Counted from the first letter of the stretch, positions 10,789-50,500 are shown. The stretch: 64,000 bases of DNA from an uncultured Candidatus Peribacteria bacterium (GCA_964563595.1 CAZLWR010000001.1:9857-73856), one strand, 5' to 3'. The notes: generated by a model not told the origin, from the letters alone. A program made the numbers and translations.

Positions 10789-11556
10789 TTATTTTTGAGT
10801 TAACTTATTGGTTTCTCATTGTATTATTACTTTATAATAAGGACATACTTGTTGCAAAGGACATGGCTCACATTTTGGACTTCTAGCTGTGCAGTGATAT
10901 CTTCCAAATAATACGATACTATGATGAGCAATTGTTTTGTTTTTTTGGTAGATTAGATGCTCTAGTAGTATGCTTGTTTGTTCTGGCATATTTGTTTCCA
11001 CTCGTCCCAGCCTATTACACACTCTGTGAACGTGCGTATCTACTCCAATTTCTCCAGATCCATATAGTATATGACTTACTACCTTTGCAGTTTTAATGCC
11101 CACTCAGGGGAGTTCGGTAAGAACATCGGTAGACCTTGCTATAAGGTAGCCATACTCCTTGTAATATGATTTTTCTTTATTACTTGTCAAGTGTATATTA
11201 GAAGTAGATTGGGTTAGTAACAATTGAGCCGTCTTATAGATGTATAGTGCTTTTGCTTTATAAAAGCCTATGGATTTAATCTGTTCTTTCAACTTATCTC
11301 ATCATAGTTGTATAATATCTTTTGGAGATTTTATAATCTGAAACAGAGCAGTAGTCACTTTGTTTACTTGTTTATCTGTACATTGAGCGGAAAGAATGAC
11401 AGCAACAAGTAATTGGAATGGTGTTTCTCGATGAAGTTCAGTTGTGGTAGATGGAAACATCTTATGAATAACCATGAGTTCATTATTGATTTGCTTTTTG
11501 GTTTTTTTCATGAATGATTTAGTTATAGGTGAGTTATTGTCATTATATAAGGTCAT
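10789..11556 (-). CDS. nth: endonuclease III
   Basis: Motifs seen: FQLLVAVILSAQCTD; HhH motif LP-G-VGIKTA with Gly=TGA (11104..11106); VDTHVHRVCNRLG-W (CGA 11002..11004); and a 4Fe-4S cluster C-x6-C-x2-C-x5-C (CTARSPKCEPCPLQQVC). The true start may be the internal MKKTKK. Confidence 0.9.
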
Positions 11557-11599
11557 ACAAAATAATGTTTATTCTATTTTATTAATCTAGTTTAGTTTT

Positions 11600-12019
11600 A
11601 TGAATAATATCCCAACTCAAGAATGAGTAATAGAGTGCTTGAAGACTGTTGTTGATCCAGAATTCCCGTTAGTGGATATTTGGACAATGGGGCTTATCTA
11701 TCAGATAACAATTAACAGTGATCAGTGAATAGATACTAAAGAAAGTGATGTCAAGGTTACTCCGTCTTTGGCTCGCAATGATGTAGAGGGTGAACGGGAC
11801 GATGAGGGCTTTGTGAGTTATGGCGATCAAGGTCAGATTATGATAGATATGACTCTCACTACTCCTGCTTGTCCTGCTGCCGATTATCTACCAGAGGCTG
11901 CAAAAAATGCTGTTCAAAGTATGTATCCGGAATATAGTGTTTCTGTTTCTATGGTACGAGACCCAACTTGGACTATAGCAATGATAAAAGACGAAGACTT
12001 GAAAAGAATGTTTGAGTAA
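11600..12019 (+). CDS. DUF59/SufT-like Fe-S cluster assembly protein
   Basis: Motifs seen: VIECLKTVVDPEFPLVDIWTMGLIY and MTLTTPACPAADYLPE. It carries an acidic internal insert. Confidence 0.7.
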
Positions 12020-12106
12020 AATGAAATAAACAAATTCAATCTTAATAATAAAAAGTAATACATTGATTCATTTAGCTCTATGAAGTGAGATATCTTTTTA
12101 GTAATT

Positions 12107-12136
12107 AAAAAATCTCCCAGACTCGAGAGATTTTTT
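12107..12136. terminator. bidirectional hairpin terminator between convergent genes
   Basis: AAAAAATCTC..GAGATTTTTT is an A-run/T-run flanked hairpin lying between the stops at 12019 (+) and 12153 (-). Confidence 0.55.
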
Positions 12137-12152
12137 GTTGATTCATTCGGTT

Positions 12153-12788
12153 TTACTTTTTCTTTGGAGTAGCTTTAGCAGTTACTTTCTTTGCAGCTGG
12201 TTTCTTAGCTACAACTTTTTTCTTAGCTGGAGCTTTTGCTTTTACTGCCGCTTTTTTTGGAGCAACTTTTTTCTTCACTACTGGTGATTTTTTAACTACT
12301 GCTTTAGCAGTTACTTTCTTTGCAGCTGGTTTCTTAGCTACAACTTTTTTCTTAGCTGGAGCTTTTGCTTTTACTGCCGCTTTTTTTGGAGCAACTTTTT
12401 TCTTCACTACTGGTGATTTTTTAACTACTGCTTTAGCAGTTACTTTCTTTGCAGCTGGTTTCTTAGCTACAACTTTTTTAGTACTAGTTTTGGCCATATC
12501 TTCAGTAAAATCTAAAACTACTTTGGTGAGCGGTTTAATTTTTTTGAGTATCTTTTTTCCAAGTTTGCTGAGATCATATTTATCTCCCTCCTTCTTCAGA
12601 ATATGCAAATCTAATAATTCTTTTATTTTTGTGGATACTAATTTGCTATTTATACCCAACTCTTTTTGTAGTTCTGTGTAAGATCTTGGTAATTTTCTCA
12701 CTAGACTCATAAGTTCTATAGACCGCTTTTTGCCTAGCGTATGCAATAGATCATACAACTTGTCTGTCTTCTTGGAAGTATCTGTCAT
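12153..12788 (-). CDS. winged-helix DNA-binding domain fused to a Lys/Ala-rich histone-H1-like tail
   Basis: This is an intact 211-aa ORF even under the standard code. The N-terminus (LGKKRSIELMSLVRKLPRSYTELQKELGINSKLVSTKIKELLDLHILKKEG) looks like a wHTH. The C-terminal half is KKxAAKK / PVVKKK repeats. Confidence 0.8.
   Translation of the reverse strand: MTDTSKKTDKLYDLLHTLGKKRSIELMSLVRKLPRSYTELQKELGINSKLVSTKIKELLDLHILKKEGDKYDLSKLGKKILKKIKPLTKVVLDFTEDMAKTSTKKVVAKKPAAKKVTAKAVVKKSPVVKKKVAPKKAAVKAKAPAKKKVVAKKPAAKKVTAKAVVKKSPVVKKKVAPKKAAVKAKAPAKKKVVAKKPAAKKVTAKATPKKK
12172..12478 (-). repeat. perfect 129-bp (43-codon) tandem repeat, about 2.4 copies, inside the H1-like tail
   Basis: GCTTTAGCAGTTACTTTC.. 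recurs at 12172, 12301 and 12430, and I saw no mismatch. Confidence 0.9.
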
Positions 12789-12914
12789 AAAAGAATGAAG
12801 AATATAAAATCAAAATAATATTTAGTATGAATGCATATTAGATAATCAGAAAACTTTCAATTGCAAGCAATTTTTTATATTTTTGTATTATAAGTAACTG
12901 CCGTTTGGTAGTTA

Positions 12915-15656
12915 CTACTGAGTAAGTAGAGATGCGATGACTTCGTCTTCTAATTCATTGGAAATATACTTTTCTATCGGTCTAGCACCGTACTGTGCAT
13001 TGTAGAGTTCTTTCACTTTTTCTTGTATCATTTCTTCACTGAAATTTGGAACCACTGCTAGTGGATTTGCTTTTCGTTGTTCTGCAAATTGTTTATAAAG
13101 TTTTTTGAAAATGTGTTCCAATTCAGTATGACTCAAGGGAGTAAATACTATTCTATGATCAATTCTATTGATGAGTTCTGGTGGCATGAAATCGTTGAGT
13201 TTCTCTAGTACAAGTTCTTTGGTGTGTTCAAATGCTGCTGCATCTGCTGCACTATCGTCTCCTGTATAATAGTTAAAACCAATTTGCTTACCTTGTTGTG
13301 AGAAATATTCAGAACCGATATTGCTTGTCATAACAATAATGGTATTTTTGAAATCAATGACTCTACCTTTACTATCTTTGAGTTGTCACTCATCTAATAT
13401 TTGAAGAAGTATATTGAGTATCGATCTGTCTGCTTTTTCTATTTCATCAAACAATAATACTGAATAAGGTTTGCGTCTTATTTGTTCATTAAGCGATCCA
13501 CCTTCGTCATATCATACATATCATGGTGCAGATCAGATTATTTTTGATAATGAGTACTTTTCCATATACTCAGACATATCAATCCTAATGAGAGATTTGG
13601 AATCGTGAAAATAATGTTCAGCAATAAGTTTTGCTATATATGTTTTACCAACTCCCGATGGTCACAAAAATAAAAATGATGCAATGGGTTTTTGTTTTGG
13701 TATGATAGATAATCTAGATTTTTGAATAGCTTTGATAACTTTTTCTACCGCTTCATTTTGTCAGAAGATATGTGTATCGAATGTTTCTCTCAAACTTACT
13801 AATTTTTCTATCTCTGATTCGCTAATAATATCTGTAGGTATACCAAGCTTATCGCTCAATACCTGTCCGATATCTCCAACATCTACTGTTGGTCTAAGGT
13901 GGGCTGGCATACTAGATTTTGATTTTAGATTTTTGATTTTAGTTTTTAAAACCAATTCTTGTTGCTTGAGTTCGGCAGCCTTGAAATAATCTTGATTGCT
14001 TACCGATTGTTCTATTTGTTTTTCTATAATTTTGAGTTCATCAGTAATAGTTCCGTATTCTTCATTGGTCTGTAACTTGGAAAGCAGTACTGATTTTCTT
14101 GCACAAGCTTCATCTATCAAGTCGATTGCCTTATCGGGTAGATGTTTATTGAGTATATATCTTGTAGATAACCCGACAGCATATTCGATAGCTGCAGGAC
14201 TTATATTTACATCATGGAAGTTCTCGAATCTTTCTTTGAGTCATTGTAAAATGGAAACAGCGTCGGTTGGCGTCGGCTCTTCCACGTTGATCTCTTGAAA
14301 TCTTCTTTTCAAAGCTGCATCTTTTTCAATATACTTTTGATATTCATCAAATGTTGTTGCTCCGATAAGTTTAATCTTGCCTCTTGCGAGCAATGGTTTG
14401 AGAGTATTTGAAGTTTCTCCTGCTTGTCCTTCATGTCCACCTGCTCACATAATTGTATGTATCTCATCGATAAACAAGATAATCTGATTGAGAGGATCAC
14501 TAGCTTCTTCCAACACTGATTTTAATCTTTGTTCAAACTCACCACGATACTTTGTGCCCGCGATCATACCGGCCATATCAAGGTTGATAATCTTATGATT
14601 CTTAAGCCTATCAGGTACATTTCCTTCGGCTATTCTTTGTGCTAGACCTTCAACAATAGCTGTCTTACCTACGCCGGCTTCACCGATCAACATAGGGCTA
14701 TTCTTGGTTTTTCTTAATAAGGTATAGATAATCTGATCTATTTCTCTTTCCCTTCCTATGACGGGGTCAAGAGTACCGAGACTGGCATCATTTGTCAGAT
14801 TATTTCAGAAATATTCGACTGTGAGTTTTTTAACAGGATCTTCCCCTTTTTCTTCTATATCAATGCTACTTTGGTGTTTACCTGTGCCGGACAATAACTC
14901 ATCTTCGTCAGTGTCAGCTGCAGAGGCAAATATAGGATTAATTCTTTTGTTGATAGGTGTTTTGTTCGCAACTGTTTCTTGTAAGATCTGCATAAGTTTG
15001 TTAATAAGAAGATAGAGTTGTTTGTTTATATCTCCTTCATCCTTATTTTGCAATCATTTGGCTGGTTCTGGTTCTATACTACTTGCCAATGCTTGTAACT
15101 CTAGGATATCCATCTTGCTAAGTTCTGAAATAGTGATACCATATTGATTCACTAGCTCTTGCAAGAGCTTGAATAGCTGTTTCGGTGCTATACGTAATGA
15201 CTCCATCCGCTGTATAGTCTGCGGTAGACTCTTTTGTATTTTCACTAAACCTATTTTATTTTTTATTCACCATTGTACAGTTGCTTCAGATATTGCTCTT
15301 ACTGCTATATGAAATAAACTGATCAGATTATCGGTTGTATTAATATTTGCTTCATGTAGTTGGTTTTGTAAGCTTGGGGTAAGTTGTAATTGCATGGTAA
15401 TTTGGTGTGGGATAGGCTGCTGGAGTCTATATATTTCATTTGCATAATTTATAAGCTGATCTACTTTTTTTAGTCAAACCATATCAAAAAATACTTCAGC
15501 ATAGGGTTGTGATTTGATAAAGTTAATGATACCAAAAAACAGTTCATCGCCATCAATGATTTGTTTGCCCGCAAATACTGTATACATACCAGCAGATGCG
15601 ATACAATTGAGATATTCTTTATCCGAGCTTCCTTGTATTCAAAATTGAAAATTCAT
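12915..15656 (-). CDS. clpC: ClpC/ClpB-type AAA+ chaperone ATPase (two nucleotide-binding domains)
   Basis: 913 codons, with all fragments in one frame. D1 Walker A is [17 protein letters not shown] and Walker B is [16 protein letters not shown]2 has ..[44 protein letters not shown]-like DYFKAAELK linker is present. Confidence 0.88.
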
Positions 15657-16017: not shown

Positions 16018-16092
16018 GCCAAGGTAGCTCAGTTGGTAGAGCAGCTCGGCTTGTAGCCGAGTATATCGGTGGTTCGATTCCATCAATTGGTT
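16018..16092 (+). tRNA. atypical tRNA-like gene, anticodon TGT (Thr) if functional
   Basis: The first 27 nt are identical to the neighbouring tRNA-Phe. The anticodon arm is G-CTCGG/CTTGTAG/CCGAG-T (6-bp stem, or a 9-nt loop under standard numbering). The acceptor stem has G1-U72 plus two G-A mismatches at 6-67 and 7-66. Confidence 0.55.
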
Positions 16093-16111: not shown

Positions 16112-16187
16112 GCCAAGGTAGCTCAGTTGGTAGAGCAGAGGCCTGAAAAGCCTTGTGTCGGTGGTTCGATTCCGCTCTTTGGCACCA
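16112..16187 (+). tRNA. tRNA-Phe (anticodon GAA), CCA encoded
   Basis: Acceptor GCCAAGG/CTTTGGC, anticodon loop CTGAAAA, T-loop TTCGATT, and a 3' ACCA. Confidence 0.9.
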
Positions 16188-16587: not shown

Positions 16588-16747
16588 TTAAAACATTTTA
16601 CTTACTAAGATATAGTGAGTTTTTTTGTAAGTAAAACCATTGCAATTATCAGCAAGATTTCAGAGACTATAGAAAAGGCCCATATAACTATTGACAAAAT
16701 GAGTATAATATTTATCAAAAACTACTTTTATTCCTAATTCACTGCAT

Positions 16748-17065
16748 ATGCAAAATATTCCCGCAAATCATTATGAAGATGGTAAATGAATGCTTAGAAA
16801 ACTTAACTTAAATCCTATTTTGGCACATGCACTATGATGACTTACTTTGGTGTTGGGCGGCATGACTAATATAATTCACCAGGATGGTGTAATGGATGCA
16901 CTGAGAGAAGTTGTTACTGAACATCCAGAACTTAGTTCTCAACTTAATACATGATTATATATGCAGATATTGAATTTTGTTATCATGCTTGCATGAGCAG
17001 GCTTGATATTGTATGCTCCAGAACCAGCCAATAAGGTTAAAGAACCTGCAGAACAAGTGCAATAG
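16748..17065 (+). CDS. small hypothetical membrane protein
   Basis: 105 codons with 5 in-frame TGA and two hydrophobic segments (LTLVLGGM.., LNFVIMLA-G-AGLILY). Confidence 0.5.
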
Positions 17066-17434
17066 CTATTTTCGGATACGAAACTTTAATGTTCATTGTA
17101 TGCTCATATCCTCATCTTCCAGATTCTCATTATTTCGAGCATGTTCAAATCAAGTTTGTTCAATAATGACTCATTCATAAGTTTGCATTGCCGTGAATAG
17201 TGCATTAGCATAAGCTTTTTGTGCTGTTTTTCAAAATCATGTACTAATTTCTTCCGAGTGGAATCTGACGGGGTTTATTCTGTTGGGGATTATTTCTTCG
17301 CCAGTTGTGGCCCATAGCTTTTGTCCTGGTTTGTCCTCTAGATTATGATAGAGAGCACCTCATTGAAATCCTTGAATACATGCTGTATCTGTTACTTTTG
17401 GAATAATTCATCAAAATCTATCTAGTGAACTCAT
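17066..17434 (-). CDS. hypothetical protein
   Basis: A 123-codon minus frame free of TAA/TAG (checked) with about 10 in-frame TGA. Its stop abuts the stop of the convergent gene. Confidence 0.5.
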
Positions 17435-17601
17435 TTGTTTGTCATATTACAATTTAAATATAAGTGGAGTATTCATTATACAAGTAGTCTATTAAGTCAA
17501 TACTATACATATATAATCAAGAAAGGTAAGATGTGTTCCTATGTGCTTTATCTTGGTAAGAAGATACTTGTTTCACTGTCTTTTTTATATTGAATTTAAT
17601 A

Positions 17602-17629
17602 TTGACAGTTATGTATAAATACTTAGTAT
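17602..17629 (+). promoter_or_regulatory. sigma70-like promoter candidate upstream of the GC-rich thioredoxin-like gene
   Basis: TTGACA (17602..17607), 16-nt spacer, TAGTAT (17624..17629), about 70 nt upstream of ATG 17699. Confidence 0.4.
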
Positions 17630-17698
17630 ACTTTTGTCATCTTTTGACTTGGTACTATGGGTCTTACCAGCCATACAACATGAAAATCTATTGCCTTT

Positions 17699-18256
17699 AT
17701 GAACAAGAAATTATTTTTCGGAACCAGTGCCGTATTGAGTCTTTTAGCAACAGCCATCTTGTCCTTCCAGGTGTACGAACGTACTCATCTGGATGTGCCC
17801 AATCAGCACGTCATGGAGCTGGATGGAATTGAAGCCGTCGAATCAGCGTTTTCCGCCCAGAAGCCGATCTTTCTGAAGTTCGGTGCGGACTTCTGTCCGC
17901 CATGCCGGGCTATGGAGGCTAATATGAAGGCCGTCGCACCCTGGCACTGCGGGGACGTCATCCTCGCTACGGTTGATATCGTCGAACAACCAGAGCTGGC
18001 TTATGTTCTGGCTGACGAAATCGGGCTGGAACTGAATGCCATTCCGAAGCTCGTGGTGCTTTCGCCGGGCCAGGATTCGGCTTATGCCCCTGCGCTCATT
18101 CAAGGCGGCTTTGTTCGTTCGATTCCGGGCCTGGAATGGGAACTGCTGAAACTGGGGCACTTTTCGCCTCTGTATTATCTCTTATCGGCAGTGGTACTGT
18201 TTGGAGTCGGCATCTTCTGCATGTTCCGCTTCAGAAGCCTATCGGTAGTGGCATAG
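17699..18256 (+). CDS. membrane-anchored thioredoxin-like protein (CPPC active site), compositionally foreign
   Basis: This is an intact 185-aa ORF under any code (no TGA, no CGA), with FGADFCPPCRAME and N- and C-terminal hydrophobic segments. GC-rich third positions (ctg, gcc, ggc, ccg) contrast sharply with the flanks. Confidence 0.8.
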   Translation: MNKKLFFGTSAVLSLLATAILSFQVYERTHLDVPNQHVMELDGIEAVESAFSAQKPIFLKFGADFCPPCRAMEANMKAVAPWHCGDVILATVDIVEQPELAYVLADEIGLELNAIPKLVVLSPGQDSAYAPALIQGGFVRSIPGLEWELLKLGHFSPLYYLLSAVVLFGVGIFCMFRFRSLSVVA

Positions 18257-18484
18257 GTGCCGACATCCACATTATTATCAACTTTGTTAAGGTCTTCCTT
18301 TACGAAAAAAAGAGCTATGCTGGTTTACTGGTGTAGCCCTTTTTTAATCTTTTCGTAAGTCTCTTCACCTCTTTGACCAATCCACTACTTTCGCATAATC
18401 AGACTACTCTATATTGACTTATATATTAATATATGTATATAATATCAGATTATTTTCTTAATACTTTTAGACTAAATTAATTTA

Positions 18485-19600
18485 ATGTTTTTCCCAAAAA
18501 AAGAACCATCGAACCCATGAAGAATGCAGGCATGATTTTTGAATTATCCTATTTTTAATATTGAAAATATTTCTTTTGAGGACTTGATTCCTCTGAATGG
18601 ATACGATATATCTCTTAAAAAAACCTTTGATAAATCGGAACATGTTGATTGGTTTATGGATAAATCAGACTTGTTTCTGAAAAGAAAGCTTAAATGATAT
18701 GCATGAAAGTTCAAAACATATGTTATTTCCTCATTGAGCAGTACTAATAAATTTAGTTGATGATATAAAAACTGTCAGTGAATAATCTGAATCTGACAGA
18801 TGGGTTGCGGTAATGTTTCCTTCATGAGCCATCAATGTCCTAGTGAAATTCTTAGAGAGGACAAATATTGAAAACTCGAGTTAAATAAGCTCTGAGAAGA
18901 TTTTAAAAGTGACTTGATCCAAAGATTGAGAAGACTGAAATCTCAAGCAACAAACTTAGACATTGTACTATTTGGTTGAAACATATTCGATGTTTCAGAT
19001 AAAACCAATTATACGGGTTCAAAAAATCACCTCTACTACTATAAAGAATCTTTGAAATTATATGTTCGTTTGATTATTGAAGAAACATGAATTATTCCTA
19101 CAGTTATTGTATGACCCAACAAATTTAGTTGAAGCCAAGCATTTTTATTGGATACAAGCAATAGAAGACTCTATTGTACTAGATTTGATGGAAGTATTAA
19201 TAGAACTAACGAATGATTGATTCTGACCAATGATTGGGATAATGAAATAGAAATATACATTGATTTATTGTGTTGACGCATATCGTATCAGGATTATCAT
19301 GCATTTATGTATTCAAGGGAGATATTTAAATGATTTAAGGAATTAACAAAAGAAGATATACAGTCTAGTATTTTTTCTATCATAAAAAGTGCTCATTTCA
19401 ATGGATTAGATAACAATGAAATCGATTGACTGATAGCCTCCTTAAACTTAGGTGGTGACTTTTTTAAACTTTATACTCCATTACAATACAAAATACCTAT
19501 TGCGGAATATTACGAAATTATACTTCTTCTAGAGAAGTTATGATTGGAGAGGAGCTATTTTGTTTCCTTGATCAAAAAAAAATTAATTAATCAAAAATAG
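18485..19600 (+). CDS. hypothetical protein (371 aa) with about 20 in-frame UGA codons
   Basis: Frame 2 is open from ATG 18485 to TAG 19598..19600, which is invisible in the standard-code track. I recognised no family motif. Confidence 0.6.
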
Positions 19601-19633
19601 ACCCAAGACCTTTTTGAGAATATATTCTAATAG

Positions 19634-34632: not shown

Positions 34633-34744
34633 TAACTATTTGTCAATCTGGAGATAGTATCTTTGTGTGCGTAAGCCTTGAATTTCACTGGTAGATGTAT
34701 TTAATCACCATCAAATCTCTATTTATTTATTATCGATTATTGGT

Positions 34745-35644
34745 ATGACTGCAAATTCACAAAAGAATGCAAACTTTTGGGACACAAACTCGCACTTGAT
34801 TACTAGTGTAGCAAGCGTCCTTACTTTGCTTCTCGTTGTCTTCAATACATTCGGCGGTGCTGGTGTTAAGAGAGCAATTGAAGAAGTAGAGGCTATGAAA
34901 GTTGGTGGCCAAGAGAACTATGAAATTGTTAAGAAGATTTACGCAAGTGACGCTTTCAAGGCATCTCAGAAGAGTTCTTTGGAGTCTGCTCAACAACAAA
35001 TGGCTTGAGCTGCTGCTGAAACTACGCCTACTGATACAACGGCTACTACGCCTGATGCAGAAGCAACTGCTGACGCAAAAAAAACTATTACTAAAGAACA
35101 ATTAGAAGCTATCAAGAAAACTGGTCAATGGGATGGTGCTAAAAATGGTAAAGTTATTTTACTTGAGTATAGCGACTTACAATGTCCATTCTGTAAGAGA
35201 CATCATGACAACGGTACTATCAAATCATTATTAGCAAAATATGATGGTAAGATTAGTCACTCTTTCAGACATTTCCCATTATCATTCCACCAATTTGCTG
35301 CACCAGGTGCTAACGCTGTTTTGTGTGCTGCTGATCAAGGAGGAACTGATGTTTACTACAAGTTTATTGAAGGTGTATTCGCTAAATCACTTAGCTCTGA
35401 ACAAATATTGTTTGATGTAGCTAAGGAATTGAAGCTTGATGAAGCTAAATTCAAAGACTGTATGGATAAAAAACCATTTGCTGCTACTGTTACTGCCGAA
35501 ATGAACGAGGGTCAAAGCTTGTTTGGTGTAACTGGTACTCCAGGAAATGTAATGATCAACACAGAAACTCTTGAATGGGTTGCTGTAGCTGGTGCATATC
35601 CTGCTAGTGAGTTTGAAAAAACTTTGGATCTATGGACTAAGTAA
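34745..35644 (+). CDS. DsbA-family thiol:disulfide oxidoreductase (membrane-anchored, exported)
   Basis: It has an N-terminal TM, a Thr/Ala-rich linker, then LLEYSDLQCPFCKRHH (CxxC) and ..GTPGNVMIN. Confidence 0.8.
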
Positions 35645-35788: not shown

Positions 35789-36322
35789 ATGAGTAGAGAG
35801 CAAATTGGACAATTTCTGAATGATATCACGCTTATGACCGATACAGAGCAACAAGATGGTGATGTGGTGAGACTTATGACCATACATGCTAGTAAATGAC
35901 TAGAGTTTGAATACGTTTTTGTGGTTGGTTGTGAAGAAGGTAATTTTCCTGGTAATAATTCTGTTCTTGATCTTGATGAATTGGAGGAAGAAAGAAGGCT
36001 AATGTATGTGGCCATAACCAGAGCAAAAGATCATCTTTTCTTGAGTCATGTAGACTCTCGTATGATATGGTGAAAGACTGTTTCAAGCAAAGTTTCAAGA
36101 TTTATAGAGGAATTGCCTACTGATTTACTGAAATCTTATGATCTAGGATCTACGGGTTCCAAAAAAAGAAGTGTGGACCTTGATGCGGGTGATAGAGTAA
36201 GAAATAAGTTGTTTTGACCTGGTACGGTGAGAGAGATCTGGTGAGATGTGGCCATTGTTATCTTTGATAAACCAAGTGTAGGTCTTAGAAAACTGGATAA
36301 AAGAATGGTAGTAAAGATGTAA
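35789..36322 (+). CDS. UvrD/PcrA-type helicase C-terminal fragment only (177 aa)
   Basis: [28 protein letters not shown] and [21 protein letters not shown] are helicase motifs V/VI. An in-frame TAA at 35735..35737 precludes any upstream helicase core. Confidence 0.7.
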
Positions 36323-37728: not shown

Positions 37729-40700
37729 CTACTTCTTGATACTAAAGTTAATAATGCCTTCTTCTACGTCGCATTCTCCAGTATAATCTGGATTCTCAAT
37801 TGATCATGCGATGGTACCAAGTGTTTCTCTGGCGATGTAATCTCCATATTGAGATAAAATACTTTCAGCTTCAAAGCCAGATATAGTTAAACTAATTCTG
37901 TCGGAAACATCATAGCCAGTATTTTTTCTGGCTTCTTGGATGGATCTGATAAGTTCTCTTACGTATCCTTCCAGTTTTAACTCTGGTGTTATAGTTGTAT
38001 CTAGCATAAGAACTAGATTTCAAGAAGTTATAATATCTCCCGTAAGATCTCCTTTTTCGTATCTCATTTCGTATTCATCTGGCTGGAGTATAATGTCTGA
38101 CACTTTGACTGTATTGTCTGACAAAAGTTCAAACTCCCCGGATTTTGCAAGAGTATTTATTTCTGCAAATCTTGAGCCGAGCTTCTTACCTAACAACTTT
38201 GCATTTGGTATACAGATTCTATTTATTTGATTATCTAGTTTTGCATCTACGATGAGCTCTTTAACGTTTAACTCTTCCAAAATAGTAGTTTCGTATTTTG
38301 GATTGATTTGCTTATTAATTCTGAGTGATTGAAGGGGTTGCTTTACTTTGATTTTAAGCGAACCTCTCAGTGAAAGACCAAGCTCCACAATTGTTTTAGT
38401 TAAATCCATATCTTGTAGTAATGTAGTATCAACCAATGTGTTAATCTTACTCGAGTCAGTTCGATAATCCAAATGTACCGACTCTTTGTTTGTAAGATTT
38501 CTATAGATATACTCTGACAAGAAAGGCATAAAAGGTGCCAGTACTTTGCATAATTCTATAAGAACTACATATAATACATCATAACCAGACATCTTATCAC
38601 TATCATTTTCAGATTTCCAAAATCTGCGTCTATTGCGGCGTATATACCAATTAGTGAGATCATCCATAAAACTAAATAATGGGGCGGTTGCTTTTTGAAT
38701 ATTATAGGCTTCCATTTGTTTATTTACTTCCGTGATGAGTTCTGCTGTTTTTCAGATTATTCGTTTATCAAGATCGTTTTTAAATTCATAACCTACGAAA
38801 TCACTAATACTGTGCTTAGTTGGAGCGAACTTGTCTATATTTGCATAGGTAGTGAAAAATGAGAAGCTATTCCACAAAGGAAGATTCACTTTTCTGATTA
38901 TTTCTTTTCGTCCTTCTTCATAAAAATTCATATCACCTCAAACGAGTATAGGACTAGATGCAAAGTACATCCTGAGGGAGTCAGAACCATGTGTCTTCAT
39001 ACTTTCTTCCGGATCTGGATAGTTACCATAGGATTTGGACATTTTACGACCATCATTTCCTGCGAGCACACCCGTACAAACAACATTGGTAAAAGCAGGG
39101 TTATCAAAGAGCATGACTCACAATGCATGCATAAAGAAAAATCGACATCTCACTTGACCTAGATACTCTGCAACATAATCTGCAGGAAAGGATTGTTCAA
39201 ACTTTTCTTTATTTTCAAATGGATAATGTACTTGAGCATAAGGCATAGATCCGGATTCGAGCCATGGATCCAATACTTGCGTTATTCTCGTAAACTTTTC
39301 ACCTTCACGTATTCACCAAATTGCATCAATATAAGGACGATGAAGATCAAATTCTTTATTCTCTAAAGTATTTCGGTATTTCTCTTTTCAATTTAAAACT
39401 CTCTTTTCGAGTATTTTACTTCCTGTTTGATCCAATGCAAATATATCCTCTCTGCTGCCGCATACTATTATTTTCCCGCTTTCTGCTACCCAAACTGGCA
39501 TTGGAGTTGCCCAATATCTAGTACGACTAATACATCGGTCAGGAGCAGATTCCATGGATTTTAAAAATCTACCATGCTTGAGATGCTCTGGTACTCGATT
39601 TACTTTTTCATTTTCAGCGAACAATCTTTCTTTGATTGATTTGATGTCAATAAACCAGTTGTCTTGCGTTTTGTAGATTAATGGTACTCCTGTTCTTGGG
39701 CACATAGCAACCGAGTGAGTAATAGACTCTTTCTTGAAAAGTAATCACTTCTCTTTGAGTTTGTCCATCACAAGATCATTCGCATCGCGGTAGTATACTC
39801 CTTTCATATCTGCTATTTCCTCGGTATAGTTCCCTTGTTCGTCCAGGGCAGCAGATTGAGTTAAGTCATGTCTTTTTCCTGTTTGAAAGTCATCTTCTCC
39901 AAATTCAGGGGAGGTATGTACGATACCTGTTCCATCGCTGTCAGTCACATAATCAGCAAGGTATACTTTGTGATCATTAGTGCTTTGTCAGACATAGTAA
40001 TCAAATGGTGCTTGATAACTTAATCACTGAAGTTCGGCCCCTTTAGATGTATATATAATCACATATTGAGAAGGATCTTTATAAAACTTAGAAATAAGGT
40101 TTTCTGCTAGTATGAAATACTCCTGTAAGACTAGATCAAATAGCTGTAGGTATACTATATCTTTGTTCACTACGAGTGCCATATTTGCTGGTATAGTTCG
40201 TGGTGTCGTAGTTCGTGCTAAGAAGGAAAATGGGTACTTATCTCAATTACCTTGCAACGCTCAATGTTCTACTATTTGTTTGTAGTGGTAAAGATCTTTG
40301 AAGGTTCTTATCTCTTCTTCACTATCTATGATAGCATTATTTATGGTGAAATTTCGTCATAATTCGTTTTCACTTGTTCATATATATGTATACCCATATG
40401 CAGTATGCTTATCTGACTCTAATAACTGAATCTCTCAATGTATTATCTCCGCTTCATAAAACTCTAGATATGCTTTGTGTGAATTTCTAATATCTTTGTG
40501 GGCACACACTCTTTTTCAAACCTTTACGCTCACTCATAATTCTTCCTGTAACTCTCTTTCTAGGGCTTGAGTCGCAGTTTCTCATAAATCTACTTTACCG
40601 CCGGGAAACTGCCAATTTCCATGTTTTTGATTATAGACCGATAGTATTCCACCTTTACTATCTTTGATTATAGCCTGTGCATAGCATATAAATCCGTCTT

Positions 40701-41394
40701 GCGTGGCTTCATATTGATTTCAATCTGCTAAGGCAATGTCTTTTCAGATTAGTGGAAATTTCACAGTGATAGCCGGATCAGCAATATCTGCATAACTATT
40801 ATCCAATGCTACTTCATAGTTACTAATTGGCGTATTGAGTTTGGTAGAGTATAATGATACTCTCTTGCCTTCATAAATCATACCCTTATCTCGTAGAGAC
40901 TTGAATACTCGCATAACAGATTCCATGTAATCATTGTCCATGGTTTTGTAGGCGTTTTTGAAGTCCACCCATCTTCCGATATGATCTACATATCGCTCCC
41001 ATTGGTCACTGACATTTTTGGTGTAATCATAACATGCTTCAATAAACTCTTTAATACCATGTGCTTCAATTTCTTTGTTAGACTTATAGCCGAGTTTATC
41101 CTGTATTTTTTGTTCTACATAAATTCCATGGCAATCCCATCCTCGTACTCTTTCTATTCTTTTCCCTTTTTGCGTCCAGAATCTTGTTACGATATCCTTT
41201 ACTACGCTGCTCAATAGGCTTCCATAATGTGGTAAACCAGTAATGAATGGTGGTCCATCGTAAAATCTATAGGCATTCTCTTCGGATCTTGTTTCAATAG
41301 ACTTTTCGAAAATTTGATTATCTTTCCAATATTGTAAGATTTCTTCTTCTAACTGGAAGAAATTTGGAGAACTAGGAAGTTTTGGGAAAGACAT
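37729..41394 (-). CDS. ileS: isoleucyl-tRNA synthetase (type 2 / eukaryote-like) carrying an internal Nudix-domain insertion
   Basis: 1,221 aa in one frame. Motifs seen: [37 protein letters not shown] (Trp=CGA at 40213..40215 and 40198..40200), [17 protein letters not shown] (CGA 39535..39537), and GRKMSKS. Confidence 0.92.
40260..40735 (-). other. Nudix hydrolase domain inserted in IleRS between the ..ITVKFPLI.. strand and WTTTPWT
   Basis: The canonical Nudix box GX5EX7REUXEEXGU is read in frame: G-KVDL(G)[15 protein letters not shown](G)V at complement(40531..40599). It is preceded by [31 protein letters not shown]. Confidence 0.8.
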
Positions 41395-41579: not shown

Positions 41580-44500
41580 ATGTTTCAACGAAGTAAAAAA
41601 AAGATTATACTCTTTATAGTACTTATTGTTTTCAGTGTTGATACAGTACTATCTGGTACTATTTTTTGATGGAATAAAGCACGAGCAGCAGAAACAAACT
41701 TTACTGATATTATCAGCGTTTTCATTGATAAAAATATTGCTGCCAGTGCAGGAAGTGACCTTGATTGGTTTACGAAACAGTATTTGTGAAGAAATTACGA
41801 CAATGCTCAGGTAATGGTATTTCAAATTGACCCATCGGGAGTCTCTCCAGCGGATATGGCTAAGATCAATCAAAATCTCTATTTGGAATGAAAAAAATGA
41901 GTTCCTAGTAGGTTGATCGGGACCGTTCTTATTGGTGATTTGAAATTACCGGTGGTCAATAAAGACTGATTTGTTTTTTCAACTATCTATCCGTTAGTAG
42001 ACTTTGAAAAACCTAAATATTATTACGATAAGAATTCAGATTATTTTCTTTATCAGTCCGAAGGCAATAGCCAACCTGAAATACGGCATAGTGTGATTAA
42101 CTTTGCGAATGATACGAGTAAGTACAAAATATATCTAGATAAACTGAAACAGTACGCTGCGGATCCGCAGTCGTGGGTGAAACAAGGTGTATGGTATGAT
42201 GATATCATCCATCAAAAACAAACTCTCAACGCTGATAATATTTCTAAATACGTTAACAATGCTGTGTTTAGCGAAGACGTAATGTACAATAGATATACCA
42301 ACTTGATGGTTGATATCTTCCAGGCCTTGCACAATAGTGGAGTAGTAGATACTTTGGGTGACTATGATGATCAGGTTATTAATAATTTGGAAGATCCTTA
42401 TTACAATGATCCAGAATTTCAGGAAGTGAAAGATCAATATAAAGGTCAGATAGAAAAGTTTTGGAATTTGATAAAATCACTAAAATCATTGGTAGGTTCG
42501 AATAATACCGACTCTTCAGATCCAGAGCCTTCAAATTCTGCCTTGGGCACATTGCCCAATAGTAAGTTTATCAATACCTTATTTATTCAAAAGGTGGTTG
42601 ACGGATTTATGAAAGATTATGTAGAGTTGTATGGGACCCTCTATTTTGATACCAAAGAGAAAAGGTTGCAGCTTGGTGGAAGATATGTTGCTGGACAAAC
42701 AGGTACTGCAGTAGATGATCATATTACGATGACTAGTAGATGGGATGAAGTCAGTAAGCAATTGTTAGCTGATGCGAATACGAAGCTGGAAAAAGCACTT
42801 GATGATAAAATTGAGCAGGAGGGATATAGTATGAATGTCTTGGTTCCGACTAGAGTGGATATCAACGGTTGTAACAATGTAGAAACAAAAGACTATGATG
42901 CGAAGAAATCGTATGAGGTGTACTATTTTGGTAGGCCGGCTGAGGAAATTGATAACGCTGAGGATTTTGGTATTTACCGTGGTACCTTCAATAATATTAG
43001 ATCACTTGTAAAGCTTGATGGTTTCGACTATACCAGTTGGATGGATGCCCAAGAGAATCAATCAATTGGTGCAACCAGGGGAGAGAATGCAAGGGAAGTG
43101 GAAGCACATAGAGGCTATGATTTCTCATTGATAGAATACGATCAACAGGAATTTGAAAGGGTAAAGAGTATTATGCCTTTTAGTAAACATAAGAAAAAAA
43201 GAAAAAACATTGATAAGTTTATCAACTATTACCGAGCAGGATATACGCCACTCAATATTGACCCTAACAGTGAAGATGTGAGACTGAACCAAACAAGAAT
43301 GGACTATACACAGTTGTGGAATCCTTGGAAGAATAGAACATTGGGCGGACCTGTATTTGATATAGCTTGAAGTAGAATCACTACTCCTGATAGGAAAATT
43401 AATTTCAGTTATGGATCGGATGATGATGAAGACGAAGATGATGGAGATGAGGATACGCCGGATATTGTTACTAAGTCTTATTCAGGTTATTCTGATAGTT
43501 ATTTAGGAGCAGACTTTTTTGGAACTACCTTGCAGGTTGCCAGAAATAATGGTAAGTGGATAAAAGTTCAGAAAAGAAAAGTAAGAAAAAATGGTAAGCC
43601 TAAGAAAAATCGAGAGGATGTTAGACTATTTGCTTTGGGTGGATTATCTAGCAATGATGGTTTATTCCTCAAAAATCCTAATGATGACGGCTATATTACG
43701 ATAAATAGTTGTGCGAGCAATAACCGAAATCGTTATTTTAATTCAGTTGATAGTAGATATTTCCATAAATCACCGACTTTAGATGAGCTCTACGGTAAGT
43801 TCACCAATCTCAATAAGGTTAAAATGGATATCAGCTTCGGCTGTGACTCTCCTGATAATGGCAATTATGCTGAGGGTCAGCAGTGCCAAGGAATAGAGTT
43901 TAGACGAAGTGATTTCTTACCGGGCTTTAATGATAATTCCGCCTCTCCCTGGTATTTATCTAAGGATGATTATTTTATAACCTGAGGCAAGATTTATTTC
44001 AATAGCACTGCGAAGTTTTACTTTGCTGGTCAAGATATTGATTTGAGTAACGTAATAGGTGAACTTACTGGTGGAAAAATAAAATTTCAATATGATGGTA
44101 GAAATATAGCACTAACGTATGCGAATGCTACTTTTGATTGCGAAGAGCTGGAGACCGACGTAGAAGAAGGTCTTGCTTGTGTGGGTTTGAGTTTCGAGAT
44201 AGATCATAGGAAGCACTTTATAGATTATAAATACTTTGACTATGATACTACTGGTCAGGTTATTTCATTTTATCCCTGAGCAAAAATTACTGTCATGAGC
44301 AAGGATTATCCCTTGTGAGGCATGGTGGTCCAAGTCAATGGTGATAAGTGAGAGTTCTCTGGCAAACAACTTCAAATAGGTGGTATGAATGAATTCACCC
44401 TCGAGAGACCGGTTGATTCTCCTAGGTATGTCAATTTCCAGGGAATAGGAGGGGATAAGTTGACTTGGGTCTATCCGAATATGTGGAAAGTGGCGGTCTA

Positions 44501-47500
44501 TAAAGAAGTAGATGGTAAAAGAGTACTTAAAACCATAGAGGAGATACAGGATGCTTTAAAACAATATCTGCGTGATAAAGTAAAAGATTACAATAATCAG
44601 CTTCAAGACCAAAGAAATAAGAGATTTGATTACTATAATGGTAACGAGTGAGGAGCTGCAAGAAGAAACCGAATTGATAAATTTGATAATTATGATACGA
44701 GTATTTCGCCTTTAGTGCATGAAGATAATACACAGCTTAATCTGAGATCTTACAAGTTGTTACCTGAAAATTTCTTGATTGATGGCTTGGCGACGACACG
44801 AGAAGGAGAAGCAATCAGCAGCAACGATATGCTTAAGGTTATTGCTCAGCAGCTCTATCATCAAAATGTGATGCGGTTGCAACTGCCAATTGACACCAGT
44901 AAAAAAGTCTTGGATGAAGTGAGTTTGATCCAATCGTTTGCCGATATTAATCATAAATCCAGGGAACTTTATTCCGAATACTTAACTGAGCAACCAAAAG
45001 ATGCTTTTGAGAATGTTCGTGCATATGATTTAGATTTACCTTATTATAATCTTAGTGGTTACGAAGCTGGATATATCAATAGTGATGGAGCGGACTATGT
45101 GCAGTTTCAAACAGTACCGCCACTAGTGAAGCTTATCCAAAAACAAAAAGCAAAAGATACTCCTCCAAAACCAAAGACGGCTGAAGATCTAGACACCAGC
45201 AGATGTGCGAATCTTATACCTGCAAGTTATGTGGTGTCCCTATCAAAACGACCTGCGGCATTTAAGTGCTGGCTTTCTGATATCACTTCTTCAAAACTTT
45301 TTGATGTAAAGATTTCTTTTGCTGGCTCTGCAAATGGTGTCTTTTGATTGGGTAGTGATGAAAACAGTTCTGGACGACTGGAAGATGCTTGGCAGCAAGG
45401 TACTGATCAGTTTAAAACCGAGCGGAAAAACTATTCTCAAGGACGAAGGGCTACGGTGAAATGAGAAGATACGGGTATCGCTCCTGATGAAAGAAGAGAA
45501 TTGGCGAAACAATTAGATAATCTGATCATCAAACCTACTAGTTTTTCTCCTGCTTTGACTGCGTGAGTGAGACTAGCGATTTCCACCAAAGAGGATTTGT
45601 GATCTTATACTATTCAGATTTCTAGTACGGGTGCCAACTGTTTGAAATATGTAAATGGGTCTAACTTGTGCCAATCACCGCAATCTTTACAAATAGCATG
45701 ACTGTATTCCAGCAATTATGATTTTACTTTCACAAAGTTGTTTGAAGGGGTTGGCGATATGAATATCCAAGTTAAAATTTGTAAATCTAAATGTGTTTAT
45801 AAAAACATAGTAATTGCTGTCCAGCCATCTGAAATTAGTAAATTAAAGTTTGTACACCCTATGGGTGATCAGATCTATCCGGTGGCGAGAGGTGTGCAAC
45901 TGCCTATGATGACCAATGCTTTTGATGCATATGGTAATAGCATTGGAACTACCTTATATGATTTTATTGTAAAGACTTCTCATAAAGGGTGACTCATCTA
46001 TGATAATGAACTTACTCAACAATTTCAAATCAGTTCATTCACCGATGCAGGGTTTCTACTAGATACGATTTCTGTGAATGGAAATAAAGAGACAATAACT
46101 ATTGCTCCAAATCCTTCTTTTGTCGCTCTCAATCCTTCATTACCAAAACAAGAACTTACGTTAGATATCGTGGATCCGAATGTGAGTATCATTACTAGTT
46201 CTACCGTAGTTCAGTTACCAGAAAGTAGTAGCGATTTAGAAAAGACAAGTGATGGCGTCTCTTACACAGATATTTCTAAACTGACTAAGATAAGAGTGGT
46301 AGTTAATAATGGTCAAAAGTTATATGCTGTTGTCTCAGCAAAGTCTCTATGAGGTAAGTTTATTGCTGGTATCAAAGGTACAAAAAAAATAGCTAAACCG
46401 AACAATCAATATGCTACTGTGGAGACATTCATTCCCGTAGAGGAGGTGCTTTCTACTGGAGGTTTTGTAGAGTTTTATCTATATCCCACTATGAAAGCAG
46501 GAGAAGATAGCCTCCAGATTCAAGTTGGTCAATCAAGTAAAAATATTACCCTTGAGGTAAAACCGGCAAGTCCCAAAAAGACCAGCATCAATATTGATAC
46601 GGATGTAATGGATTTGCAATGAAAGGTTGATGGTACTATAGCAGTCACTGATATCTGGTGAAATATATTACCAACTTCTGTGAATGTATTATTATGAGCA
46701 TATGGCAATATTACTGTTGACGGAGTAAATGGTTCTGGCAGTGTTATTGCTATTGCTTGAGAAAAGCAAATTACTGTTCGCCCGGTATATCCCTGAGGAC
46801 AGGGTTACTTATTTGTTACTATACAATGAGTCCCATTTGATCAACAATTTCCTGATTATCGTAGTATACTTGTGCAAAATAGAGCACGACCTATAGAAGA
46901 TATAAATGTAGCTTACCTCAATCTTTACGGCTCAGATCGAGCGAACCAAGTTGATAAGCAAACAAATAAGATAATCTGACCAGCAGTTCTTACGGACAGT
47001 AATAAAACTTTATCGCTTACTACTCAGTATGGAGATCCATCTCAAATCTACAAAACATTGTTCGCAGTAGATAAGAAATGACAGATCAAACAATGATGAA
47101 CAGAGAGTATTGAACTCGCTTTGTCTAATGAACAACTTGGATATCATACTGAACAGTATGGGTTCTTACCTATCGGTCAAGCCAGTAGTTTTGGTATGCA
47201 AGTAGTTTCAAGTTTGGATGGAGGGCTTGCCGGAAATGCTTGGGCTGTTAAGGTTTGAGAAATCAGTTCTACCATACAATCAATTGTGGTTGTAGGCAAG
47301 CAGTTGCGTGTCAATGATCAGATTATTATAGATTTGCAAAATGCTGTATGGGATACCAAGGTAAGTATAAAGTATGCAGGAAATATAGGAAACTATACCA
47401 AGCGAAATATATATTATGGTAATGACATTGTTGCTCAGTTTATTCAAACATATGCTTTGGATACTACCTATACTGATATGCGAAGATCTCTTGTGGATCC

Positions 47501-50500
47501 TACAAGGTATACAGTGGCGGATGTTTTGGTATCTCAATACCATGATCAAGGAATCGGTATACTGGATAATGCTGCTAACTTGAGCGACGAAGATAAAAGC
47601 GTTCCTAGTATCCAACATAGTGAGGATAGTAAATATAATATTGGATTTGGTGACACCTTTAAACCGCTTACACAGTTTGCTCAAGGTAAATCAGTGGGTG
47701 AGTCTTCTGTCGCCTTTGCAAGTGAGTTTGTTCTCAATCTGTGAGATCCGACCTACCGTATTTATGAAAAAAATAAACTAGTAGATCATACAAATTATGA
47801 TGGCTGACTTGGTGTTACTGCTTTCGCTGATCCCGATAAAATTATCCAACAGGTTATGGACATAAATCGAGATAAGCAGGGCGATAGGGATTTATTGGTA
47901 GTATACGCAGACGGTTCGGTAAGGCTATTGATATCAAAAGGTAACAAACAATATGTTAAAGTATGAGACTTGGCATATATACAAGACGGCATCCAAAAAC
48001 TCTATGTAGGTGATGGTGATGGTGACGGTTATCAGGATCTCTTTGTGCATACGATGGCCAATCAGTTGAGATTCTATAAAAATTATGAGTGAGAAAGAAT
48101 TGATGTAGATGGTTATCCTATTTGTCTAGACATAGAGGGTGGGGATAAAAATCTAAATGGTGTCTGGCAATGGTTTCTTACAGATCCAAACAATGATAAA
48201 GTTACCGATATTGTTATAAATGATAAAAATAATCAGATCAAATTATTCTTGGGATGAGGATGATCTACTTTATTTAATTTATGATTTGGTTGAGGAAATT
48301 ATATATCCAAAGATAAGTATGCTTGCGACCCGGATTGGAAATCCAGACAGGAAGGTAAAATTGCTACTATCAAGTCATTCGCCCCAAAGCTTGATGGCAC
48401 GCAAATCACTGACGAATCTTTGGTGCATCGAAATGGTCTTAGCACGTCAGACACAGGAACTATTAATCCTAATGTGGATTCTGCAGATGACCTGGAAGAT
48501 CCTGATAGGATTAATGTCGACATACAATTGGGTAATTCTAAAAAACCAAAAGATGTTATAAATCTCGTGAAGAGTCAGCTTATGTCTACTTTTAATCCGC
48601 AAACATGGATTACGGAATATACAAATTCATTAGATAACACCATTACTCTTGATGCTGCCTATAAGCCAGTATATGAAACAATTCCTGGCGAGACCGTTTA
48701 CAAACAATTGCAGTCGTTACTTACCACCGATAAATTGGCTTCCTATAAAACCTTTACTGACTTAAATGGTGGTAAATTAGAAGATGGCGATATAGTGAAA
48801 ATAAATATTACTATCCAATGAAAGTGAGCAGCTAAGGCAACTTATATTGAGAAACTCTCTGGTCCGCGGGAAATTCCCGTCAGTGGTACCCAGCAGGTAT
48901 GATTTTTCCAAGGTAACTTGAATTCAGATTATACTTTCATTTTGCAGCCTTGACCGAGTTATGTGTTTATGATTGATAATATAAACGTATGAGCAACAAC
49001 AAACTTTGGTTACCATGTAGTATATAAATCACAACAAATAGTAACTATTCAGCATGGAGAGTGATTTACTGATGTCAATGGAGTAGGTGGATCTATTGGT
49101 AAAAACCTTATACCTCATGCTTATGCCCAATCGGATAATACGCCGCCTTGGCTTGAGATAACACCTTTGGACGGATGTGCCAAGTTTAAATGGAAGATTA
49201 CTACTCCCAATATATGACCCATTTTATCAAATTGGTTTGTAGAACAAAAGATTGACCTAGAACAACAGATAAAAGATAAACAGAAACAAGACGAAGAGAA
49301 ATATACCGAAGGCATGAGTGATACGTTTTCTGATCTGGTAAGTGATACAAAGGATGAAATAAATAGTGAGCTAAAAGATACGTATCTGAGAGAATCCCGG
49401 AGACAAAAAGGTTTATTGAAAGACGACCCCGCACTCAAAGCTATTGAACAATTTGCTTATACTACTGAAGCACTCAGCAATCTCAGTATCAATAATAATC
49501 TGAAAATAGGAGGTTTTGGTGCGGATATTGATCAGTTGTTGGATAATAAAATTGGTGAGCTTACAAAGGGACTTTGTGAAGGATTTAAAGTTGGGCAAAA
49601 AAACTGTTCAGGTATACCTATTTTGAGTAGTCTTCCGCGAAATATGGCTTTCTTGTCGCCTGGAGATATGCAGGTTATGGGATGTAAAATTTGGAAAGAT
49701 AAGGGTATACCATTGTTGCGGTTCCCCGCAACCTTACAAACCCCAGTCGGTCCGGTGCCTTTCATAGGACCTATTGGCCAAAAATGACCGGGAGATGGAT
49801 TCTATCGATTTGGTGGATGAACTTATACGTCTTTGATCAGAATGTATGTCTCACCCACTTTAACAGCAAAGCTGGGAATTGGTATCTGTTTCGGTCCTTA
49901 TACAGCCGGTATTAAATTACCAAAACCCTTTAAGGATATTATGGGCAATTGTATCGTATTTGCAGTAGATCCAGGACTTGGTAAATGTGAGCAGGTGAAT
50001 GAATGATGACCAAGTGACTATAGTTCTTATGTTATCAATAAGGAAACAAAAGAACTAGATGATACCAATACTTGTAATGATGACATCACTGTTAAGAATT
50101 CTCCACTGAAGTTAGTAGAGACCTCAGTAAATACTGCTGATAACTGGCTTGATTCTGTTCAATGAGAGCATGGGTTGGTAATAAAACTTGGATGACACGC
50201 CAACCTCACCAACTACAATAGTATTGCTCTCAGCGATTTTGTTACTAAGGTAAGACTTGAGGGTGGCAATCCTTTAGATTTACAGATAAAGGGAGCAAAT
50301 GATAAAGGTTTAGTGAGCTGTCTTATCAATCAGTTCGCTGATAACCAGATTAGATATATCATCAATAATCTGACTAGTATGGATATCAATATTGTCTTAC
50401 CGGATTTGAGAGGCTTGGGAAGACAAATAGTTGGAGTAGCAAATGTATTCAATAACAATGCTTGGCAAGAAAAGCAAAGCAACGAAGCGTTTTCTGATTA

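Follow-up and report, generated by a model that had tools for sequence, protein, structure and literature searches.

Extracytoplasmic, membrane-anchored oxidoreductases are found in Gram-positive bacteria, where ResA and StoA of Bacillus subtilis and Etrx1/2 of Streptococcus pneumoniae represent the TlpA/Redoxin branch with its extra structural elements, and StoA also carries a CPPC motif. In thioredoxins, the residue that follows the CxxC motif is not known to be catalytic. Cultured Absconditabacteria are reported to have purple-sulfur hosts, whose GC content is well over 60%. Horizontal gene transfer (HGT) into this group has been described, with 126 genes of such origin in Vampirococcus lugosii (PMC8080830), and according to a published prediction CGA and CGG both encode Trp in the Absconditabacteria (Shulgina & Eddy 2021, PMC8629427). 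Neither membrane-anchored thioredoxins nor HGT into this group is new in kind, and what is mildly unusual about the locus described here is that the gene is a full orphan despite its un-ameliorated composition and that it has an apparently code-discordant codon beside its active site.

The locus lies in a stretch of 64,000 nucleotides, called the window hereafter, and it consists of a 185-aa open reading frame (ORF) at 17699..18256 on the + strand, which contains FGADFCPPCRAME and belongs to the thioredoxin family (PF00085). The explanation preferred here, at a probability of roughly 0.7, is that this ORF encodes a classical thioredoxin tethered to the membrane, that it was acquired horizontally and is still un-ameliorated, and that it was inserted at a hotspot of gene content in the Absconditabacterales. 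If so, it provides a clean single-gene case in which a CPR bacterium has fixed foreign DNA from a donor with a different code, the differences being at TGA, CGA and probably CGG.

Composition and borders of the gene

The GC content of the thioredoxin ORF is 0.530 against 0.361 ± 0.027 across all 558-bp windows of the 64 kb (z = 6.3), and nowhere else in the 64 kb does a 558-bp window exceed 0.45; moreover, the related Absconditabacterales loci, 240 kb in all, contain none above 0.48. At third codon positions the difference is larger still, GC3 being 0.61 in this ORF versus 0.30 ± 0.04 (maximum 0.38) in the 43 other ORFs of the window (z = 7.5), and the favoured codons are CTG, GCC, GGC and CCG, which differ from the background. 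At first codon positions, too, the value for this ORF (GC1 0.61) is higher than in any other ORF of the window, which makes its amino-acid composition foreign as well, beyond synonymous codon choice. ML segmentation places a GC-rich patch at 17719..18270, nearly coincident with the ORF body, with a GC content of 0.547 inside and 0.307 outside (log-likelihood ratio 54.9 nats); its start falls in the range 17715-17753, that is, 20-55 nt inside the ORF, and its end in the range 18260-18274, at most about 15 nt from the stop codon. The first 20 codons are of intermediate composition, with a GC3 of 0.45. A reading made earlier from the sequence alone (the sequence-only reading) had described a GC-rich gene of foreign composition with ctg/gcc/ggc/ccg codons between AT-rich, native-looking flanks and had proposed plots of windowed GC and codon usage, and these, now run, display one island in 64 kb and agree with it on both the gene and its flanks.

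That reading had also stated that the gene has no in-frame TGA or CGA, and a codon count of the 185-aa form gives the same answer: TGA 0, CGA 0 and CGG 1. TGA accounts for 25% of the Gly codons of native genes and for none of the 12 in this gene (P ~0.03). On average TGA makes up about 1.7% of codons, and two neighbouring ORFs, p371 (18485-19600, + strand) and p122 (17066-17434, - strand), are the most TGA-rich of the window, with 20 of 371 codons (5.4%) and 8 of 122 codons (6.6%), respectively; the thioredoxin gene, with no TGA, stands at the other end of the range.

Around this coding body the DNA is of the native, AT-rich type. The start codon of the ORF lies within such DNA and its frame continues across the 5′ composition junction, and a terminator-like hairpin (18314-18337) with the T-run behind it takes up 18314..18347 (+). 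Upstream, the promoter candidate TTGACA-16-TAGTAT named by the sequence-only reading is indeed present at 17602..17629 (+) and matches 10 of 12 consensus positions; its significance as a promoter, however, was rejected, since the window contains 6 such matches and shuffled sequence would give 6.9, which puts them at chance level. A Shine-Dalgarno motif is absent from the native genes here and from the leader of the thioredoxin gene as well. In the resident code, furthermore, the TGA at 17681-17683 does not close the frame, which extends upstream as far as an ATG at 17657, an option that had been missed before, and the candidate N-terminal extension at 17657..17698 (+) adds MGLTSHTTGKSIAF; if this ATG is the start, the protein could be 199 aa long with one TGA-encoded Gly. 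The longer start option is invisible to a code-11 gene caller and visible under code 25. In the mechanism proposed here, the terminator, the opening codons, the leader devoid of a Shine-Dalgarno motif and the promoter-like site are all AT-rich DNA of the native type, so that the gene appears to stand under resident expression signals.

Compositional change this abrupt at both ends, in a contig assembled from a metagenome, would also be expected of a chimeric join or a contaminant insertion. Logan, which is an independent assembler although its reads may be common with those of the window's contig so that the data are not necessarily independent, has a 1304-bp contig (run SRR8893623) that is 100% identical to window positions 17120-18423 and spans both composition junctions, and the identical thioredoxin protein is recorded on it. 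A chimera is unlikely, because a second assembler rebuilt both junctions identically. In addition, the patch measures only about 550 bp within a 115-kb contig and holds one intact ORF that starts in the native part, and a chimeric join would rarely give an ORF in frame across the 5′ junction. As far as it is testable, the gene would appear to be no product of assembly, and a chimera or contaminant is regarded as extremely improbable.

Genetic code and codon 70

The relatives of AtpG place the genome in the Ca. Absconditabacterales / SR1. When TGA is read through, the ORFs of at least 100 aa in the window rise from 8.4k to 26.5k aa, and in orthologue pairings with a partner other than TGA, the TGA codon is paired with Gly codons (GGN) in 63 of 93 cases and with Trp in none. 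As for CGA, 12 of these codons in the isoleucyl-tRNA synthetase (IleRS) gene could be aligned to solved structures, and seven fall on invariant Trp, two on aromatic residues and none on Arg, the invariant-Trp motifs concerned being AWTTTPWT, W-VP, DW-ISR, RGWF, DRWI and WWVF; moreover, CGA and TGG interchange between the window and orthologues in the related locus L003. TGA is Gly and CGA is Trp in this genome.

The lines that bear on CGG specifically are thin: codon 285 of GlyRS lies on a conserved yW motif in two of four structure alignments, codon 22 of an HxlR-like protein lies opposite a Tyr of 3df8, and the single alignable CGG pairs with CGA in L003. A tRNA decoding CGG is absent from the window. 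The premise of the sequence-only reading that CGG might mean Trp here stands to the extent that CGA is Trp and CGG behaves as its synonym, while the lines for CGG itself stay few. The same reading had pointed to a single in-frame CGG directly after the CPPC motif, and this is correct; it is codon 70 (17906..17908, +), which follows C69 and means Arg in the standard code and probably Trp in the resident one. Since the CGG lines above agree with the published prediction (PMC8629427), residue 70 is probably Trp in this cell. Among 146 motifs in 101 distant matches, the residue after CxxC is R in 65, K in 45, Q in 16 and W in none, and the gene has evidently, to judge from these relatives, been shaped under a code in which CGG is Arg. 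In the proposed mechanism, the residue by the active site would be translated as Trp and not as the Arg typical of the family.

Several other genes of the window were observed in the course of this analysis. The IleRS gene (37729-41394, - strand) has 14 CGA codons, seven of them at invariant Trp positions, and some 170 aa of its product (residues ~217-388) form an insertion that aligns to no solved IleRS and shows, by eye, a Nudix-box-like motif. A giant ORF of 4329 aa (41580-54569, + strand) has 64 TGA, 26 CGA and 9 CGG codons; huge putative surface proteins are reported for Absconditabacteria, and this ORF looks like one of that kind. The ORF at 12153-12788 (- strand) joins an N-terminal winged-helix domain (HxlR/ArsR-like) to a histone-H1-like tail rich in Lys, Ala and Pro, in which there is an exact internal duplication, KKPAAKKVTAKAVVKKSPVVKKKVAPKKAAVKAKAPAKKKVVA occurring twice. 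A 177-aa ORF at 35789-36322 (+ strand) resembles UvrD-like helicases in their C-terminal domain alone (PF13361 positions 261-347); it may be a fragment of a gene, or a gene that is split or has been given the wrong start.

The atpG-tRNA slot and the origin of the gene

The thioredoxin gene is situated in a slot at 16600..19633 that extends from a tRNA-Pro/Thr/Phe/Ile cluster to atpG and is hypervariable by synteny with the loci L018, L003, L053 and L054. Its cargo in the window comprises TM105 (16748-17065), p122 (17066-17434, -), the thioredoxin gene and p371 (18485-19600); the ORFs flanking the thioredoxin gene have no Pfam match, p371 and p122 are orphans, and foreign composition among the slot genes is confined to the thioredoxin gene. 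The neighbours are core genes of native composition, including Nth, a ClpC-like protein, the four tRNAs, AtpG, FtsH, RnpA, aminoacyl-tRNA synthetases, DNA polymerase III subunits, Def and a DsbA-like protein. The backbone of ClpC, tRNA cluster, slot, atpG, p141 and FtsH is conserved in relatives, whereas the content of the slot is not. In L018, the nearest relative in which the full slot could be compared (AtpG 67% identical, collinear on both sides), the slot at 10873-13990 holds an unrelated 3.1 kb with a 423-aa flavoprotein-like ORF and two others, and in L003 it is empty (10871-11070), the tRNAs coming directly after atpG. The closest relatives found, L053 and L054 from one JGI sample, are contigs of only about 1.3 kb that end short of any tRNA cluster; the C-terminus of their AtpG is 94% identical in amino acids (79 residues) and 83% in nucleotides, and the similarity stops at the end of atpG. 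L053 and L054 themselves have ends that are 93-99% identical and central ORFs with an identity of just 24% (E = 2e-14). The thioredoxin gene is missing from all 54 related loci. Judged by this synteny, the atpG-tRNA slot is a gene-content hotspot in the Absconditabacterales, and it may help to track gene gain in reduced genomes; the insertion site of the gene would be the backbone of atpG, tRNA cluster and ClpC in a Ca. Absconditabacterales genome.

No integrase is visible at this slot in the compared genomes, and no integrase, transposase or mobile-element gene was found in the window, while a search for att sites or repeats at the borders of the thioredoxin gene brought up nothing beyond short, AT-rich matches due to chance; the earlier statement that transposase, integrase and direct repeats are missing at the borders thus holds. 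Within the cluster beside the slot, the genes for tRNA-Thr(UGU) (16018-16092) and tRNA-Phe(GAA) (16112-16187) are alike over a 31-nt stretch on the 5′ side (97% identical) and over 16 nt of the T-arm, a likeness that suggests that a tRNA gene was duplicated and that one copy then changed its anticodon, and this tRNA-Thr copy is absent in L003 and L018.

A word-indexed search of 5.8e9 proteins for an orthologue returned only the window's own protein, and an exhaustive phmmer search over 1.84e9 representative proteins returned none. In the latter, only three non-self matches were below 1e-10, the best of them being 30% identical over residues 26-102 only (E = 1.8e-12), and the closest proteins among the representatives are 30-43% identical over 50-90 residues. 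Viral contigs and JGI metagenome contigs gave no match to the protein, and in phage and plasmid records blastn found no match and tblastn only generic thioredoxin matches of 30-33%. The few top matches that bear a name are 'thioredoxin family proteins' with CPPC-R from Thermoguttaceae/Planctomycetota, which gives only a hint of a Planctomycetota affinity. The homologues are all too distant for a meaningful tree, and the search for a donor by BLASTP and phylogeny that had been recommended accordingly names no lineage.

Such an absence of orthologues bears on the alternative that the gene is native and vertically inherited and owes its odd composition to selection on the mRNA or on amino-acid content. 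The native look of the flanks and expression signals and the intermediate first 20 codons (GC3 0.45) are what this alternative would lead one to expect, but it has to accommodate a GC3 that is 7.5 standard deviations above that of the other genes, TGA-Gly codons numbering zero versus 5-7% of codons in p371 and p122, slot contents that are unrelated in genomes with the same backbone, and the lack of an orthologue in relatives or databases; it is considered very improbable. Orthologues of the same composition inherited vertically were what the sequence-only reading had named as evidence against transfer, and they were looked for and found neither in the lineage nor in the databases. Acquisition by horizontal transfer is well supported, because the composition is foreign, orthologues are absent and the content of the slot differs among relatives, and in this respect the earlier proposal is upheld.

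With GC1/GC2/GC3 values of 61/38/61, the gene fits best at a genomic GC of 55% on the codon-position regression lines of Muto-Osawa / Lawrence-Ochman, and this fit suggests that it is little ameliorated. In the preferred explanation, donor composition would be confined to the coding body and the donor genome would have about 55% GC. We infer from these features a transfer into this genome and, from composition, its relative lateness; the earlier qualification of the acquisition as recent would follow from the un-ameliorated composition only. An identity of 30-43% is odd for a recent, un-ameliorated transfer, unless the donor lineage is unsampled, and since the ends of the ORF are very nearly the limits of the foreign composition, no donor flank is left as a witness.

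It had also been suggested that the donor may be a host. Transfer from the bacterium's own host or prey, with DNA taken up during epibiotic feeding and then fixed, has in its favour that Absconditabacteria are thought to import host DNA, that HGT is frequent in them (PMC8080830) and that the gene is compatible with the standard code. Nevertheless, identity among the 1.84e9 representatives goes no higher than about 43%, and that over part of the domain, which means that the gene is absent from the sequenced lineages of host type, and the fit at about 55% GC lies below the GC of the purple-sulfur hosts of the cultured relatives. A host donor is not borne out by the best non-self match (30% over residues 26-102) or by the GC fit, and it is held to be quite unlikely.

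The predicted product and known thioredoxin systems

The sequence-only reading had seen in the product a membrane-anchored CPPC protein of the thioredoxin fold, and this description is supported, with the anchoring as a prediction. The ORF at 17699..18256 (+) matches PF00085 with 32.9 bits against a gathering cut-off of 23.5 (E = 6.6e-8), its other Pfam matches being only weak ones to Thioredoxin_2/7/8, and its sequence matches in the PDB are all thioredoxins. In an alignment of 58 sequences, consisting of the query and 57 distant single-domain matches, the active-site CPPC (C66-P67-P68-C69; 17894..17905, +) has both cysteines invariant, the cis-Pro loop proline P116 (AIPKL; 18044..18046, +) is an invariant column, and the invariant or near-invariant positions C66, C69, P116, A63, P68, D93, G124 and G132 are all kept in the query. 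The AF2 model, which is MSA-based and built with this 58-sequence alignment (a single-sequence model gave a pLDDT of 50), has a core at residues 40-125 with pLDDT 87-96 and the order β-α-β-α-β-α-β-β, while the last helix is poorly defined (pLDDT <50, residues 136-153). Foldseek against the PDB gives as top matches exclusively thioredoxins and PDI a-domains, with a probability of 1.00 and a target-normalised TM score of about 0.7. Two other families were considered and rejected: the DsbA family, as there is neither a PF01323/PF13462 match nor an inserted helical domain in the AF2 model, and the TlpA/ResA/StoA type, as PF08534 (Redoxin) and PF00578 (AhpC-TSA) do not match even at E <= 1.

Hydropathy and the AF2 model predict two transmembrane (TM) helices, an N-terminal one or signal anchor at residues 4-25, preceded by MNKK (17708..17773, +; AF2 helix 7-28), and a C-terminal one at residues 155-185, then RFRSLSVVA (18161..18253, +; AF2 helix 157-177). 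Because MNKK precedes the first helix and RFR comes after the second, the positive-inside rule, used here by itself, suggests a topology with the N-terminus inside, the thioredoxin domain outside and the C-terminus inside. The product is, from this, a predicted extracytoplasmic, membrane-tethered thiol-disulfide oxidoreductase with CPPC, and its substrates would be exported or cell-surface proteins. A protein of native composition with an N-terminal anchor and DsbA-like features (Thioredoxin_4/DSBA match, CPFC motif) is encoded at 34667-35644 (+), so the genome already owns an exported thiol oxidoreductase, and the thioredoxin would work alongside it. The redox partners CcdA/DsbD, Msr and VKOR are not among the genes of the 64-kb window, and a reductive role would therefore have no visible electron donor of the CcdA/DsbD type there.

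It is conceivable that the acquired gene is a non-functional passenger which is silent, or whose product is crippled by, for example, the change of Arg70 to Trp, and which is decaying. As a singleton without orthologues, with a promoter match at chance level and a residue adjoining the active site that probably departs, through the resident code, from the consensus of the family, it has some features of such a passenger; on the other hand, an ORF of 185 codons has stayed intact in an AT-mutating genome, all invariant thioredoxin positions are kept, the start codon and terminator lie in native DNA with the ORF in frame over the junction, and the residue after CxxC is not known to be catalytic. 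A passenger is judged unlikely. A wider proposal goes beyond the preferred explanation of a horizontally acquired thioredoxin gene, namely that a gene of the standard code entered, and is expressed in, an organism in which three codons have been reassigned, that CGG, the one codon in it on which the two codes disagree, puts a Trp by the CPPC motif where Arg/Lys is typical of the family, and that the integrase-less slot is maybe a general entry point; this is tentative, and doubtful as a whole. If it is true, the gene would be a natural and assayable case of sense-codon reassignment filtering or reshaping incoming genes. One tryptic peptide would reveal how CGG is decoded in vivo, FGADFCPPCR indicating Arg and FGADFCPPCWAMEANMK indicating Trp, and the same peptide would show whether the recoded residue is tolerated beside the redox centre.

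The HGT genes of Vampirococcus lugosii are the closest parallel as regards origin, for there, too, foreign genes have been fixed in a code-25 CPR genome. The evidence here, however, is compositional and syntenic and not phylogenetic, and the thioredoxin gene differs from them as an orphan with a CGG whose meaning is probably not the same in donor and recipient. With regard to the protein, the best database matches are the CPPC-R/K 'thioredoxin family proteins' of Planctomycetota, which are exported or anchored at the N-terminus (Thermoguttaceae metagenome-assembled genomes, for example MBS7338292.1, MGI6401847.1 and MCP3902188.1), together with unnamed metagenomic relatives. They have the motif FGA-x-(W/F)-CPPC-R in common with the protein described here, and many of them have an N-terminal hydrophobic anchor; the identity, though, is just 30-43% over 50-90 residues, and most of them are tandem two-domain proteins or are without a C-terminal TM helix, and neither orthology nor a donor relationship can be claimed for them.

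The anchored oxidoreductases of Gram-positive bacteria (ResA, StoA and Etrx1/2) would be alike in location if the prediction is right, with the thioredoxin domain outside and tethered to the membrane, and weak PDB matches to 2yp6 and 4hqz belong to this comparison; by analogy, the protein may work in a similar manner. It differs from them in matching PF00085 and in having a predicted second, C-terminal anchor, and a CcdA partner was not seen in the window. Finally, classical thioredoxins such as Escherichia coli TrxA, the Brucella protein 6ckp and Mycobacterium tuberculosis TrxC have the same fold, with a CxxC motif that starts helix 2 and a cis-Pro loop, but they have CGPC with a W before the first Cys, whereas the protein described here has CPPC with an F and an insertion of about six residues ahead of the cis-Pro loop; and while the classical thioredoxins are soluble and cytoplasmic, the thioredoxin domain here is predicted to sit between two TM helices.
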